Source: Candidatus Heimdallarchaeota archaeon (GTDB lineage: Archaea > Asgardarchaeota > Heimdallarchaeia > Heimdallarchaeales > Heimdallarchaeaceae). From it: DNA of 64,000 nucleotides. Below, in pieces: positions 55,520 to 62,386 of the stretch. The stretch covers positions 32,001 through 96,000 of the forward strand of contig JAUVXV010000009.1 in assembly GCA_030603365.1 (NCBI GenBank), read 5' to 3'. The notes beneath the pieces are model-generated. The model made no database searches. It saw only the letters and a list, made by a program, of their open reading frames with translations, and was not told where the DNA came from. A program made the translations under genes and the position numbers. Every line of letters begins with the position of its first letter. Position 1 is the first letter of the stretch.

Positions 55520-56587
55520 TCAAGCAACTTTATTTCTCCTAAAGACCAAAACTAAACCAGTTAATATCAAGAAGCTTATTGCTGAAACAATCAGAAGCTC
55601 ATTTTGAGACACTAAGGGGAGATTTACCCAAGAACCTATTAGTGGATCAATTGTTGGTGAGTCTAATCCTGTTAATATGCCAGATAAGCCAATTTTTGGA
55701 TCATGAATGATATCACTTCCTCTCGGATAGTTAAAATACATTCTGTAGTCTTCTCCATCGTATTCCAGAGGAGTTACTTTTACTTCATATTCAACATCAT
55801 CTACTGTTACTGTTTCTATCCAAGAGAAGAATCCACTGTAATCGGCTAGATTTACTTCTATCTCGTGTTCATCATCCGAATAACCATATTCTTCATCTTC
55901 TGTCTCTTCATCATCTTCATAATCAACATCTAGTTCAGACTCGAGTTCTACTTTGAGAGCTAGTTGTGTGTCAAGCTCATCATAATCAAAATCATGAATA
56001 CCGATGTCTATTTTCATCTGAGTAGGAGCTATAACAACTCCAGAAATATTTGCAAAATCACCTGTAATATAAAGTGTAGAAGTAAATATGTCATCTGTTG
56101 TTTCGATAAAGAAAACATGAACTGTTTCATTATCAATTGTTTCAGTAGTATAGATTATAGGCTTGAAATCATCAAGTTCGAGGGTTTTAATCACATCATC
56201 TGATGCATTATAAATCCCATCTGAACTGAGATCTCTAAATTCAATGATTTCAGTGAACCTCACTTCGAATTCTATTTCAGTTTCTAGCGTATCATTGTCC
56301 TCTTCAAACTCTAATTCAATCACTAAACCATCTGACCCAACTGTAACCTGAATCTGGAATTCATTGTCTATACCGTTATTTTCTATTGAAGACGAGATTG
56401 TGACTTCATATGGAGCATATTCAATATCGACTTCTCTCCTATTTTCATCTTCAGTTTCATCATCTATTCCATCTTCATCTTCATCTTCATGTGCGGTTAC
56501 TGGCAAGTAAAGAAATGCAGAAAACACTAAAACTACTATTAATCCTCCTAAGAATAGTTTTTGTTTGTTTAGTAGTTTCGATTTCAT
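55520..56587 (-). CDS. Acidic secreted, C-terminally anchored surface protein (paralog A)
   Basis: Signal peptide, D/E-rich N-terminus, YPRGSDIIHDPKIG, C-terminal TM plus RRNK. Confidence 0.8.
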   Translation of the reverse strand: MKSKLLNKQKLFLGGLIVVLVFSAFLYLPVTAHEDEDEDGIDDETEDENRREVDIEYAPYEVTISSSIENNGIDNEFQIQVTVGSDGLVIELEFEEDNDTLETEIEFEVRFTEIIEFRDLSSDGIYNASDDVIKTLELDDFKPIIYTTETIDNETVHVFFIETTDDIFTSTLYITGDFANISGVVIAPTQMKIDIGIHDFDYDELDTQLALKVELESELDVDYEDDEETEDEEYGYSDDEHEIEVNLADYSGFFSWIETVTVDDVEYEVKVTPLEYDGEDYRMYFNYPRGSDIIHDPKIGLSGILTGLDSPTIDPLIGSWVNLPLVSQNELLIVSAISFLILTGLVLVFRRNKVA

Positions 56588-56727: not shown

Positions 56728-57774
56728 TTATCTCTTAAATCTTTTACGAAAGACTAAAACTAAACTAGTAAGTGTTAGTATAGTAGCAGCTGATATGATT
56801 AGTAAATTGTTATCTCCTAAGAAGGAAGTATTAATCTGAAGTAGGTTAGATACACCAATTTTAGGATCATGAATGATTTCTGTACCTCTTGGATAGTTTA
56901 GATACATTTTGTTCTCTTCCAAAACCATTTCTAAAGGAGTAACTTTAACATCTACTTCTACACCATCGACCATTGCTGTTTCAATCCAAGAGAAGAATCC
57001 AGCATATTGCTCTAAACTAATTTCTATTTCCAGTTCATCTTCTGCATGGCCATATTCTTCATCTTCAGTCTCATCATCTTCCTCATAATCGACTTCTTGT
57101 TCTGATTCAAATTGAACTTTAAGTGCTAGTTGAGTATCAAGTTCAGTATAATTGAAGTTATGAATCCCCACATCTACCTTCACTTGCGTTGGAGCTACTA
57201 TAACACCTTCAATATCAGCAAATTCACCTGTGGCATAAAGAGTAGCAGTAAATACTTTATCTGTAGTTTCAACAAACAGAACATGTACTGTTGCATTGTT
57301 TATTATTTCGACTGTATATTGAATGGGTTTGAAATCATCTAGTTTTAACACTTGAATTACCTCGTCTGAATCATTATAGATTCCATCTGCATTGAGATCT
57401 CTAAATTCAACAATTTCTCTGATTTTAACTTGAAATTCTATCTCTGTTTCAACTGTGTCGTTGTCTTCCTCAAATTCTAATTCAAGTATTAGACCATCAG
57501 ACCCAACTTTAACCTGAACTTGGAATTCATTTTCTATTCCATTATTTTGTATCGAAGATTCTATCTGTACTTCATAATCAGAATATTCAACATGAACTTC
57601 TCGTTCGTTTTCATCTTCTATTCCATCTTCTATTCCATCATCATCTTCATCATCACCATCACTGTCTGCTAAAGCAGGCATGTACATGAAAGATGAGATG
57701 ACTAATATTGCTACTAAACCACTCAAAAGCAGTTTTTGTTTGTATTTCAGTTGTGCTTTCATTGTTTTGAACAC
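56728..57774 (-). CDS. Acidic secreted, C-terminally anchored surface protein (paralog B)
   Basis: Collinear with and highly similar to 55520-56587 (VGSDGL, EFEEDNDT, DDFKPI, VVIA/VIVAPTQ, ELDTQLALKV, GFFSWIET, IIHDPKIG). Confidence 0.8.
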   Translation of the reverse strand: MFKTMKAQLKYKQKLLLSGLVAILVISSFMYMPALADSDGDDEDDDGIEDGIEDENEREVHVEYSDYEVQIESSIQNNGIENEFQVQVKVGSDGLILELEFEEDNDTVETEIEFQVKIREIVEFRDLNADGIYNDSDEVIQVLKLDDFKPIQYTVEIINNATVHVLFVETTDKVFTATLYATGEFADIEGVIVAPTQVKVDVGIHNFNYTELDTQLALKVQFESEQEVDYEEDDETEDEEYGHAEDELEIEISLEQYAGFFSWIETAMVDGVEVDVKVTPLEMVLEENKMYLNYPRGTEIIHDPKIGVSNLLQINTSFLGDNNLLIISAATILTLTSLVLVFRKRFKR

Positions 57775-57924: not shown

Positions 57925-58758
57925 TTACAAAAGAATGAAAATGAGGGTGAAAATTTGAGCATAACTTACAATCATAGCAATAAGTGCAGATTTCTCAACT
58001 GAAAGCTCTTTTATTTCTCCAACTGCAGTAATTATAATCAAGAAACTCCAGATTTGAAAAACTCCATGAAGAATTAGAAGCACTATTGATGGCACAACTA
58101 TTGCTGTTCCACTAGCCCAACCTATGATGCCAACAATCACTGTAAATAGAAATGAAGGTAAGAAAATTAGATTTGTTACGTTGATCAATGGAAATGTATT
58201 CTTATTTTTCTTGAAAGCGAATCTACTTAGAATTTCTGTGAAACCTGCGATAAATATCCAACTTCCAAGAAGACTGATATAACCAAGCCACAGAGGAACT
58301 TCATAGGAGATAACGAAGTTTCCAACAATAAGTATTTTACTTCCCCATCCAATGAACACACTTATTCCTGCTAGAATAACAAATTCAATTAATGCATGAA
58401 CAGGATTTTTTGCAAAGAATCTAATCAATGGAGCTAGACTAAATTTCCATATGCTGAATACTTTAGGTTTTTCAGTTTCTTCAAAAACCTCATATTCTGG
58501 TTTTTCCTTGCCCTTGAGGATATTTAGAGCTTTTACGCCATCTTCTGATAAGAAATACTTCTTATTATCCCCTTGATATACGAACTGTTTCATCTGACGA
58601 AGATGATGATAAAGAGGACCAGATTTAAGCTCGAAAGTTTCTGTAAGGTCAGTATATGTCGCTCCCCCTATTTCTTCAATGAACTCAAGAATCCTTCTCC
58701 TAATTGGATTAGAAAGAGCAGTAAACAATGCTTCTTCAATTTTAGAATCTTGAGACAT
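57925..58758 (-). CDS. ArsR-like wHTH regulator fused to a multi-TM (Yip1-like) membrane domain
   Basis: LFTALSNPIRRRILEFI...TYTDL...SGPLYHHLRQM...YFLSEDG, then about 6 TM helices. Alternative GTG start at 58770. Confidence 0.82.
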   Translation of the reverse strand: MSQDSKIEEALFTALSNPIRRRILEFIEEIGGATYTDLTETFELKSGPLYHHLRQMKQFVYQGDNKKYFLSEDGVKALNILKGKEKPEYEVFEETEKPKVFSIWKFSLAPLIRFFAKNPVHALIEFVILAGISVFIGWGSKILIVGNFVISYEVPLWLGYISLLGSWIFIAGFTEILSRFAFKKNKNTFPLINVTNLIFLPSFLFTVIVGIIGWASGTAIVVPSIVLLILHGVFQIWSFLIIITAVGEIKELSVEKSALIAMIVSYAQIFTLIFILL

Positions 58759-58771
58759 ATCTATCAACACT

Positions 58772-58810: not shown

Positions 58811-61800
58811 TCAATCACCGAAATTGCAGAAAGATAATAGCTCTGTAAGTCCCAATCTTTCTAATTCTTCTCCTCTAGGACATCCAGTTTCAGGATTATA
58901 ATTCCTATACTCATACCATTCTTTTAGCTGGATTTGAATATCTGGAGAATTACCTTCTGTTGGACCATCTAGTCTTTGTCTCATGACATTGGGTAGAACT
59001 TGAAGTTCAGGTTTCCACCCCAGTCTTAGATTAATGATTCGTTTAAGAGCGTAAATTCTATCTCCTAATAGAATTAAGTCTTTGGATGTATATGATTTGT
59101 TAACTGCCATTCCAAGCAAATCTGCTACTAACGGAGCTGGGGGATTATAAAAAACGCATATGGTCATTGCATTATACAATTGCCTATAGCTTTGAAGATT
59201 GGCCATTTGTTTTGCTATTCCACTGCTTTCAAATCTACTATCTGGCAAATTATCTATCCCTATTTCAGGAAAAGTTGCTCCTTGCTGTACAAGGTAAGCA
59301 TCACCATTATTATGGCATGCTCCTCTTGGACTTGTAAGATACTGAATTGCCCATCCACTAAATGCTCTTGGGTCATGGAATGGTGCTTCTAATCCAGCAA
59401 CTTGTGGAGCTATTGCTGTATAAAGGTAATTTTCTGCCAAAACCTTACTACCTTCTGCTAATAAGTTCCCTATACCTTCACGTTTAGTAATCATATCAAG
59501 CAAAGTAAGTAATGTATCTGCGTTCCCAAAACTCAAATCTAGTTCTTCAGGTAATGCTTCAGAAGGGATATAATTCTTAGATACAAGATCAAGCAGTACT
59601 CCGATAGTTGTACCAGCAGAAATTGTATCCATACCATAATCATTTGCTCTGTAAGTTGCAAATGATACAGCTTCTAAATCTCCTATTTTCAGATTTGTCC
59701 CAAATGCTCCTAATGTTTCATATTCAGGACCCTTAGTTCGAGGAAGTTTATACTTCCCTTCTGGTATTTCGATGATCCTGCCACATCCAATCGGACAACG
59801 ATAACATGCATATCTTCCTACAAGTATAGTTTCCTTAATAGAAGCTCCAGAAAGATTAGATGCTTCATCAAACTTAGATTCAGACCAATTACGTATTGGC
59901 AAATCTCCATACATGTCTATTGCAACATCGAGATAACCAGCAGTACCAAGTTCTTTAGTGAGTTCAACCATAAAATCTTCTTTTATTGATTCATATGCTT
60001 CTCTTGATTTTTCTTTAAACTCTTTAGGTAATAGAAATTCTTTGTTTGATCCTTTTACAACTATTGCTTTTAGTTTTTTTGATCCCATTACGGCTCCTAG
60101 ACCAGTTCTTCCAACTGCTCTACCTTCATCATTCATAATAGAAGCATATTTCACAAGATTTTCTCCAGCTTGACCTATACACGCAATCTTGAATTTTCTG
60201 TCTCCAAGTTCATCTAGAATCTTTTCATGAGTAGCAAATGTTCCTAATCCCCAAAGCTCCGATGCATCTCTGATTTCTACCTTATCATCTTCAATCAGAA
60301 GATAAACAGGCTTATCTGACGCTCCTTCAAGGATTATGCTATCATATCCTGCAAATTTTAATTCAGGACCAAAATTTCCTCCTGAGTTTGCTTCACCCCA
60401 GAATCCTGTTAATGGTGAACGAGAACAAACTGTAAATCTTCCCGCACAAGAAGTGGGCAAACCTGTCAGGGGTCCAGTCATAAAGATTAAGATATTTTCA
60501 GGTGATAGAGCATCAACATTTCTTGTATTCAAAAATTTGAAATAATAATGTGCACCTAATCCACTTCCACCTACAAAATCCTTTGCCGCATCCATATCTA
60601 GTGGTTCTGTTGAAGATGTGTGATTTGAGAGATTTACCTTAAGTACTAAGTTCCGATAGCCTCCTCTCACAAAATCAGCCATTTCATAAAACATGGATTC
60701 TATTGTTTCATTTGATAATTCTCTTGGATTGACTAAAGATCCTGTGTCATTGAGTGCAAAATCACAGAGAAGTTCCATATTTTCCTGTAGTTGAGAATAG
60801 GTGACTCCAAAATCCTTCAGAGTTGTTTTTAATCCGATATCTGTAATTAATTCTTCTACTTTTAGTACTAGTTTTTCTGCTCCTTCTCTCGGTGAATCGA
60901 ACTCGATTCCGATTGCATGAGCTATCTCTGAATAGTGTTGAGCAGTTTTTTCTTCTTCCAGACAGAATTTCATCATGTGAGGTAGAGCAACAGCAATTAT
61001 CTCTCCATGAGGTATATTTAATATCGCACCTGCTGAATGAGCTAAAGAATGGGTTCCTCCAATTTGACTATTCCCAATAGCTATTCCTGCCATAGTAGCA
61101 GCATTGTGCATTTTTTCTCTATAATCAAAATTATTTCCCTCTTTCACTACTTTTGGAAGATATTCAAATACATGTTTAATAGCTTGAATAGCCATAGCAT
61201 CCGCAAAGTCATTCTTCCAGTCTATTGTATATGCTTCAATTGCATGGGCTAAAACATCCATCCCTGTTGAAGCGGTTAAACCTGGTGGAAGTTTGATAGT
61301 TAGTGAAGGATCAACAATGTCAATATCAGGAATTAAATCTCTATGAGCTAGACTCAATTTCTGTTTAGTTTCAGGATCTGTTATAATTATTGCCCAATTT
61401 GCATCTGAACCTGTTCCACTTGTCGTGGGGATTGTTATCAATCTAGCTTTATTTCGTAAAGGTAAAGGATCTTCAGGAAAAACGCTGTCTATACTCATAT
61501 CAGGATTTTCATAGAATACCCAGATTGATTTCGCACAGTCAATTACTGATCCTCCTCCGATTGCAACTATCCAGTCCACTTCTTCCTTCTGAGCTAGATC
61601 AGCACCTGCTTTAGCCATTGGTATAGATGGTTCATAATCAACTTGATCAAATATTGTTATCTTGAATTCATTTTCTTCTAAAAAACTAATAGCCTTTTGA
61701 GGAATACCTAAGTCTAGAAGAACTTTATCAGTTACAATAAGTGCACTTTTACCCTTAATTTCTTTTAATTCATCTAGTGAATCTTCCCCGAAAACTATTT

Positions 61801-61825
61801 TTCGTGGAGCACAATAAAACCACAT
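58811..61825 (-). CDS. Fusion of an iron-containing alcohol dehydrogenase (N-terminal ~381 aa) and a W/Mo aldehyde:ferredoxin oxidoreductase (C-terminal ~623 aa)
   Basis: ADH part: IGGGSVID, PTTSGTGS, DVLAHAIE, HSLAH, PHG. AOR part: GGY..VLKVNLS, SPLTG, AGYD, IGQAGENLV, GRTGLGAVMGSKKLKAI, CYRCPIGC, GPEYET, NDYGMDTIS, RGACH, ICVF. Single uninterrupted frame. Alternative TTG start at 61831. Confidence 0.93.
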   Translation of the reverse strand: MWFYCAPRKIVFGEDSLDELKEIKGKSALIVTDKVLLDLGIPQKAISFLEENEFKITIFDQVDYEPSIPMAKAGADLAQKEEVDWIVAIGGGSVIDCAKSIWVFYENPDMSIDSVFPEDPLPLRNKARLITIPTTSGTGSDANWAIIITDPETKQKLSLAHRDLIPDIDIVDPSLTIKLPPGLTASTGMDVLAHAIEAYTIDWKNDFADAMAIQAIKHVFEYLPKVVKEGNNFDYREKMHNAATMAGIAIGNSQIGGTHSLAHSAGAILNIPHGEIIAVALPHMMKFCLEEEKTAQHYSEIAHAIGIEFDSPREGAEKLVLKVEELITDIGLKTTLKDFGVTYSQLQENMELLCDFALNDTGSLVNPRELSNETIESMFYEMADFVRGGYRNLVLKVNLSNHTSSTEPLDMDAAKDFVGGSGLGAHYYFKFLNTRNVDALSPENILIFMTGPLTGLPTSCAGRFTVCSRSPLTGFWGEANSGGNFGPELKFAGYDSIILEGASDKPVYLLIEDDKVEIRDASELWGLGTFATHEKILDELGDRKFKIACIGQAGENLVKYASIMNDEGRAVGRTGLGAVMGSKKLKAIVVKGSNKEFLLPKEFKEKSREAYESIKEDFMVELTKELGTAGYLDVAIDMYGDLPIRNWSESKFDEASNLSGASIKETILVGRYACYRCPIGCGRIIEIPEGKYKLPRTKGPEYETLGAFGTNLKIGDLEAVSFATYRANDYGMDTISAGTTIGVLLDLVSKNYIPSEALPEELDLSFGNADTLLTLLDMITKREGIGNLLAEGSKVLAENYLYTAIAPQVAGLEAPFHDPRAFSGWAIQYLTSPRGACHNNGDAYLVQQGATFPEIGIDNLPDSRFESSGIAKQMANLQSYRQLYNAMTICVFYNPPAPLVADLLGMAVNKSYTSKDLILLGDRIYALKRIINLRLGWKPELQVLPNVMRQRLDGPTEGNSPDIQIQLKEWYEYRNYNPETGCPRGEELERLGLTELLSFCNFGD

Positions 61826-61857
61826 AATCAAATATTAAAAAAGGTAGAATAAAAATG

Positions 61858-62277
61858 TTATAGAAATTCTGTTGGAACTTTCTGTGCTGAATTAACCAAT
61901 TCTTTTGCAGCTTTGGTTGCTCGCATGACTTTTCCTTTGTCACCAACAAGTTTGAATTTTCTAGTAAGGATTCCTTTGATTGGATCTAATTCTCCATTAA
62001 TTACTTTCAACCAATTAGAATAGGTACCTTTATACTCAAATTCAGTTTTAGGTCCTTCTTGTCCTTCCTCAAAATAATCCACACTTCTACAATCGCCATG
62101 CCAGAGGTCAAGATAATATGTGTGTTGTTTATCTAGTTTATCATCTGGTTCGATTACAAATAGAAAGTCACCTTCCCACGTTTTAGCTGCTTCCTTGTAG
62201 TCTGGTGAGTTGTTAAGAACTTCCATGAATTTTTCTATCCATTCTCTACTTGGAAATTTTGCTGTCATCATAAACAC
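61858..62277 (-). CDS. SCP2 sterol/lipid-binding domain protein
   Basis: FPSREW..LN..YKEAAKTWEGDF, YLDLWHGDC, GTYSNW..VINGELDPIKGIL..KFKLVGD. Confidence 0.88.
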   Translation of the reverse strand: MFMMTAKFPSREWIEKFMEVLNNSPDYKEAAKTWEGDFLFVIEPDDKLDKQHTYYLDLWHGDCRSVDYFEEGQEGPKTEFEYKGTYSNWLKVINGELDPIKGILTRKFKLVGDKGKVMRATKAAKELVNSAQKVPTEFL

Positions 62278-62386
62278 CGTTCATTTAATGTTATTGCTGT
62301 TGCTTCTTAGCTTGTTTTTAAATATTATTTAATGCAAATATAATACTTTAAGAATCATCTAGAAATCTTGAAGTATTGGATTAGAT

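Follow-up and report, generated by a model that had tools for sequence, protein, structure and literature searches.

To our knowledge, the pairing of an aldehyde:ferredoxin oxidoreductase (AOR) with an alcohol dehydrogenase (ADH) is the only known ATP-free route by which unactivated carboxylic acids are reduced to alcohols, and it is used for the production of ethanol from syngas. The two-enzyme form of this route has been described for Moorella, Clostridium autoethanogenum, Thermoanaerobacter X514, and engineered Pyrococcus furiosus; in it, AOR uses ferredoxin (E0' -520 to -560 mV) for the step between acid and aldehyde, in either direction, and the step between aldehyde and alcohol, likewise reversible, falls to an NAD(P)H-linked ADH (PMC10816221). 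In AdhE, which forms the Escherichia coli spirosome, an iron-type ADH (Fe-ADH) is joined by a short linker to a CoA-acylating aldehyde dehydrogenase (ALDH), and two insertions in the ADH domain seal the inter-domain channel (PMC7080775). Here we analyzed a 64,000-nucleotide stretch of Candidatus Heimdallarchaeota archaeon DNA (the window; assembly GCA_030603365.1, contig JAUVXV010000009.1, positions 32,001 to 96,000), in which a single gene on the reverse strand encodes an Fe-ADH and an AOR in one chain, directly behind a gene for a lipid-binding protein of the sterol carrier protein 2 (SCP2) fold.

A search of the open-access literature, with most subscription journals outside its reach, found no natural ADH/AOR fusion, in agreement with an earlier note on this DNA, which knew of no characterized protein of this architecture; a survey of molybdoprotein fusions gives none for AOR. 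Judged from sequence, the protein would work like the known two-enzyme route, with enzymes of the same families and a predicted CoA-independent acid-aldehyde-alcohol chemistry linked to ferredoxin and NAD(H), and the single-chain Asgard form appears to be new to the literature searched. It differs from that route in being one polypeptide, in its co-encoded SCP2, and in having a host without pterin-cofactor synthesis. The reading that we prefer, with a confidence that is about even, is one bifunctional, CoA-independent, NAD- and ferredoxin-linked converter of alcohols, aldehydes, and acids for hydrophobic substrates, with SCP2 as carrier and an imported cofactor.

Fe-ADH and AOR are both complete in a single frame

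A single uninterrupted open reading frame (58811-61831, reverse strand) encodes both enzymes, each complete. The 1006 codons reported for it in the earlier note are indeed open, although the true start is probably the ATG at 61825: the corresponding methionine is the first residue in all homologs, so the gene (58811..61825, reverse strand) probably encodes a protein of 1004 amino acids. Residues are numbered here by the 1006-residue annotated frame. The group III Fe-ADH half lies at 60677..61825 and the W/Mo-bis-pyranopterin and [4Fe-4S] AOR half at 58811..60664, and the junction between them, placed by alignment with split relatives, spans residues 382-391 (60659..60688; all reverse strand). 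The Pfam domains Fe-ADH (residues 9-175, 149.9 bits), ADH_Fe_C (186-381, 169.9 bits), AFOR_N (396-594, 272 bits), and AFOR_C (610-995, 335 bits) are all well above their curated cut-offs. The AlphaFold model of the whole chain has a mean predicted local distance difference test score (pLDDT) of 93.9 and a predicted template-modelling score (pTM) of 0.79, and the junction is ordered (pLDDT ~88-91 across it). Each modelled half superposes on solved members of its own family with template-modelling (TM) scores of 0.91-0.94, namely 0.91-0.93 for the ADH half against 6scg, 8zwd, and 1rrm, and 0.93-0.94 for the three-domain fold of the AOR half against the solved AORs; no solved chain spanning both halves was among the structure matches listed. 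These domains, the model, and the residues described below uphold the earlier description of a complete Fe-ADH running into a complete AOR.

In the ADH half, the Asp/His/His/His metal ligands (D192, H196, H261, H275) are conserved in the fused sequences, as the earlier note had supposed, together with the GGGS loop (G92-S95). D35 is conserved as well, which in this family suggests NAD as the cofactor. The best match of this half in the PDB is 3zdr, the ADH domain of AdhE, and it belongs to the same Fe-ADH subfamily as the ADH halves of AdhE proteins (39-41% identity). No CoA-acylating ALDH domain (PF00171) was found in the fusion protein by Pfam search, and a match to NF010378 reaches 313 bits against a cut-off of 951 and covers the ADH part only.

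In the AOR half, the cysteine ligands of the [4Fe-4S] cluster (C676, C679, C683, C892), the pterin contacts R465, N482, R571, and D735, and the catalytic residues E703, E705, and H840 are invariant, and the cysteines and the glutamate motif are thus intact as claimed. The pterin motif read earlier as DxxGxD is in fact NxxGxD (N730-D735), an invariant variant within the fused clade, and the distal pterin motif carries an equally invariant Asn887 ahead of Cys892. The single-subunit tungsten AORs of P. furiosus (1AOR) and C. autoethanogenum (9G7J) and chain D of 9MQX share 36-38% identity with this half, as well as its fold and its Fe-S, pterin, and catalytic residues; they differ from the fusion in lacking the N-terminal ADH extension and the Asn that comes first in both pterin motifs. 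By all features testable from sequence and model, each half belongs to its own family. Purifying selection acts on both, with ratios of nonsynonymous to synonymous substitution rates (dN/dS) that range from 0.05 to 0.13 in the ADH half and from 0.07 to 0.17 in the AOR half. With both catalytic residue sets intact, the sequence agrees with the earlier proposal of a single-chain, CoA-independent ADH/AOR, and both enzymatic activities are very probably present.

The junction is genuine

The genus to which the window belongs (class Heimdallarchaeia) was surveyed in 25 genomes, the source genome (G000, 89% complete) and 24 more. The junction is open in 14 of them, and three further genomes hold fragments that end before it. 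A homology search returned 16 further full-length fused clusters at 69-89% identity, those with names being labelled mostly Heimdallarchaeota or Heimdallarchaeaceae. Since the junction is open across many independent assemblies, a sequencing or assembly error is ruled out, and the fusion is genuine.

An apparent fusion could also arise if a stop codon had been erased by sequencing error, or it could be split functionally by a restart of translation at an internal methionine, and sister genera do carry an in-frame TAG at the equivalent site. The open junction and the full-length clusters speak against the former. As to the latter, M384 (nt 60682), which the earlier note had considered as a restart site for AOR, sits in the last ADH helix, where it lines up with the penultimate residue of the ADH that split relatives make as a separate protein. 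One fused orthologue lacks it, and the alignment of fused sequences revealed neither a ribosome-binding motif upstream of it nor a conserved in-frame start at the AOR boundary. A restart at this ADH-derived residue was accordingly rejected as unlikely. About five residues at the junction take the place of the stop codon and ribosome-binding stretch seen in split relatives. We consider either kind of artefact extremely improbable.

Origin of the fusion

The ancestral unit is a three-gene operon, scp2-adh-aor, which is found in split form in the sister genus, in a further Heimdallarchaeia family, in Thorarchaeia, and in other Asgard families. In the sister genus, the AOR frame begins immediately behind a TAG. 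We rejected the idea that split relatives insert pyrrolysine at this in-frame codon, because no PylRS was found in 83 genomes of the class, and the TAG of the split forms is therefore read as a true stop. When ADH was searched for in 400 genomes of the phylum, the only frames of ~1000 codons among the top 150 matches came from the genus of the window. A concatenated tree unites the 18 fused sequences in one clade (98/94), with a split sister group and split outgroups. As the fused clade is nested among split operons, the tree indicates a single origin of the fusion from the three-gene operon in its split form, and fission as the origin was rejected on the same ground; a tree of the ADH part alone did not resolve the question.

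Contig L137 falls within the fused clade, yet its gene is interrupted by a TAG and taken up again at a new ATG, with a ribosome-binding motif created by a short duplication (L137:1150-1215). Grouping the fused sequences without it is rejected by the approximately unbiased test (p 0.005). Its place in the tree and these sequence features mark L137 as a secondary re-split of the fusion, seen in one sample.

Outside this clade, a HMMER scan for ADH/AOR fusions that covered 1.8 billion representatives found the same domain pair in one chain in P0240 and P0275 (ADH-AOR) and, in reverse order, in P0349 (AOR-ADH; Deltaproteobacteria/Ca. Tharpellaceae). They share ~35% identity, fall on separate branches far from the Asgard fused clade in the concatenated tree, and have no SCP2 neighbor in the loci examined. 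Their placement indicates independent origins, so that ADH and AOR have been joined on no fewer than three occasions, with either enzyme in front. DUF1329, BNR-repeat, and MMPL genes, a combination frequently tied to the uptake of hydrophobic compounds, directly precede the reverse-order fusion (L082:1-7934), and the bacterial-looking ADH-AOR fusion P0275/P0386 adjoins a heliorhodopsin gene (L081, L138). Other AOR fusions carry a GNAT domain (P0229), a hexulose-phosphate-synthase-like barrel (P0287), or a 160-residue tail with no family assignment (P0285); an SCP2 identity for the latter tail was considered and found no support from BLAST or Pfam.

Operon and neighboring genes

The SCP2 gene (61858..62277, reverse strand) is the first in the operon, with 26 nt between it and the annotated fusion frame. 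Its product matches PF02036 (E=8.5e-10; 39.3 bits against a cut-off of 21.3) and resembles the Thermus SCP2 structures 2cx7 and 1wfr (E~2e-15; 2.2e-15 for 2cx7). An SCP2 gene precedes ADH in nearly all loci, fused and split, across several Asgard families. On a Hodarchaeota contig, SCP2 is itself fused to the Fe-ADH (P0122, L045:864-2528), with a second SCP2 gene before and AOR after it, and acyl-related neighbors at other loci comprise a ChsH2-type OB-fold protein and an NMO-family flavoprotein. From the SCP2 partner, the acyl-related neighbors, and the SCP2-ADH fusion, we infer that the substrates are hydrophobic alcohols or aldehydes, a proposal that we consider somewhat more likely than not.

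A putative, weak TATA-like box was read upstream of scp2 (62317..62322, reverse strand), in the intergenic region shared with a divergent SWIM-finger gene; a scan for sigma-70 promoters gave matches at chance level only. The gap between scp2 and the fusion (61832-61857) is T-rich, as it is in most loci of the genus, and could act as a partial archaeal terminator that would yield more SCP2 than enzyme. Immediately downstream of the fusion, domain search and locus comparison identified a gene with an ArsR-like helix-turn-helix (HTH) and a membrane domain (57925..58770, reverse strand). At most loci of the genus it trails the fusion, but split relatives do not have it there, and it is therefore probably no part of the core module. 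Two tandem paralogues follow on the same strand (55520-56587 and 56728-57774), very acidic proteins with hydrophobic terminal segments and no Pfam match; many loci of the genus have a homolog of them next after the HTH gene.

Supply of the pterin cofactor

MoaA, MoaC, and MoeA are missing from all 25 genomes of the genus and from four neighboring genera; they are present in controls and in other families of the order. MoaE, TupA, WtpA, and FdhD were not found in the 89% complete source genome, and a MoCF_biosynth match there, considered as MogA/MoaB, reads as a CinA-type protein. In the class as a whole, MoeA is absent from 62 of 83 genomes. The source genome nevertheless retains seven AOR-family genes, as well as formate dehydrogenase and xanthine dehydrogenase genes that lie next to a MobA-like and a MocA-like gene, respectively. 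Because pterin-synthesis genes are missing from the genus, the AOR half probably relies on scavenged cofactor, and we regard its running on imported cofactor as likely.

A membrane-anchored protein of the source genome (G000 C13:37706-38731; L128:7707-8732) has a model (pLDDT 69) that matches PruR, which binds pterin, and also sulfite oxidase. Homologs with this fold occur in 48 of the 62 MoeA-negative genomes of the class as against none of the 21 MoeA-positive ones, and the contrast recurs within two families. The model and this distribution are suggestive of a surface protein that may capture the pterin cofactor. The homolog in genome G001 (L121) lies within an ECF-type transporter cluster. 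In the closed genome G007, a compact cluster (L093:10149-13775) reads as moaC, moaA, a MOSC-like gene, a single moeA, and a moaB-like gene; it is set among genes with orthologues on contig C14 of G000 and may be a re-acquired pathway.

Discussion

If the fusion is the converter proposed above, its iron site would interconvert alcohol and NAD+ with aldehyde and NADH, and its W/Mo-pterin site would interconvert aldehyde, water, and oxidized ferredoxin with carboxylate and reduced ferredoxin. It would represent a covalently tied form of an older SCP2/ADH/AOR module for hydrophobic substrates, for which medium- or long-chain or isoprenoid alcohols and aldehydes are candidates, probably carried by SCP2. 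The tether would set a 1:1 stoichiometry and keep the aldehyde low by proximity rather than by a sealed tunnel, and the pterin cofactor would probably be imported ready-made. Presumably, as in its family, the ADH half mediates a dimer. By our own estimate, the overall reaction with NAD and ferredoxin lies near equilibrium, and its direction would consequently be set by the cell; net oxidation of alcohol or aldehyde to acid, yielding reduced ferredoxin, seems slightly likelier than reduction. Small ferredoxins and two NiFe hydrogenases are potential electron partners in the genome.

Several observations weigh against this reading. No orthologue was seen in 8 of the 25 genomes of the genus (86-92% complete), and the correlation between the PruR-fold protein and MoeA is drawn from related genomes that are not independent. 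The beta-oxidation set is single-copy and scattered (one acyl-CoA dehydrogenase, one enoyl-CoA hydratase, one 3-hydroxyacyl-CoA dehydrogenase), and the genome has two AMP-binding ligases; so minimal a beta-oxidation set makes bulk feeding on fatty acids doubtful, and salvage or detoxification is as likely as bulk lipid feeding. A more far-reaching version appears unlikely to us: here a single chain would interconvert long-chain or isoprenoid acids and alcohols with neither ATP nor CoA, handing over the aldehyde directly between its ferredoxin-linked tungsten site and its NAD-linked iron site by a non-AdhE route, with its own SCP2 carrier and with pterin scavenged from neighboring microbes.

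The AdhE-like aldehyde channelling inferred in the earlier note found no support. A true analogue of AdhE, with a closed channel and mainly reducing acids to alcohols as an electron sink, would fit the very short, ordered linker and the whole-chain pTM of 0.79, which exceeds the larger half's share of the chain length (0.61) and hints at a preferred domain arrangement in the model; the recurrent fusion of the two families and the closeness of the ADH half to AdhE ADH domains point the same way. The protein differs from AdhE in that its partner domain is a pterin/Fe-S AOR instead of a CoA-acylating ALDH and its ADH is N-terminal. The channel-sealing loops 2 and 3 of AdhE, however, are absent from the ADH half (9 and 12 residues shorter), as they are in split relatives. 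Alignment with these relatives revealed no fusion-specific insertions in either half, and consistent differences from the nearest split forms amount to only ~14 ADH and ~8 AOR positions. Together with the re-split of L137 inside the fused clade and the separate genes kept by most Asgard lineages, the missing loops and insertions favor a simple tether over an evolved tunnel, and we consider the AdhE analogue unlikely. Much the same holds for a node of aldehyde disposal in peptide fermentation, in which branched-chain and aromatic aldehydes would be oxidized by AOR or reduced by ADH according to redox state, with SCP2 only loosely linked. Such a role has been proposed for AOR in Pyrococcus and Aromatoleum, AORs are usually broad in specificity (PMC10816221), and the genome's lipid-degradation set is minimal. 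Yet several Asgard families keep SCP2 beside the ADH/AOR pair, one lineage has it fused to ADH, and six other AOR-family genes of the genome could serve this purpose; aldehyde disposal is thus likewise an unlikely reading. Less probable still is an AOR half that works without pterin, for example as an Fe-S relay or a scaffold, or that is usually empty since the host cannot make the cofactor. The missing Moa and MoeA genes and the further absences in the source genome would suit this view, as would the orphan molybdoproteins of ~310 prokaryotes, a class that is itself unexplained (PMC6147048). Against it stand the invariant pterin-contact and catalytic residues, the low dN/dS of the AOR half, the retention of three pterin-enzyme families with their nucleotide-adding maturases, and a candidate pterin-binding surface protein in place of the pathway, which together make it very unlikely.

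A natural single-chain form with close split and re-split relatives offers a ready comparison of the effect of tethering on rate or aldehyde loss. The SCP2-ADH-AOR operon hints at a lipid-alcohol pathway common in Asgard archaea, and a whole genus that has lost pterin synthesis but keeps its pterin enzymes under selection makes cofactor scavenging in prokaryotes testable.

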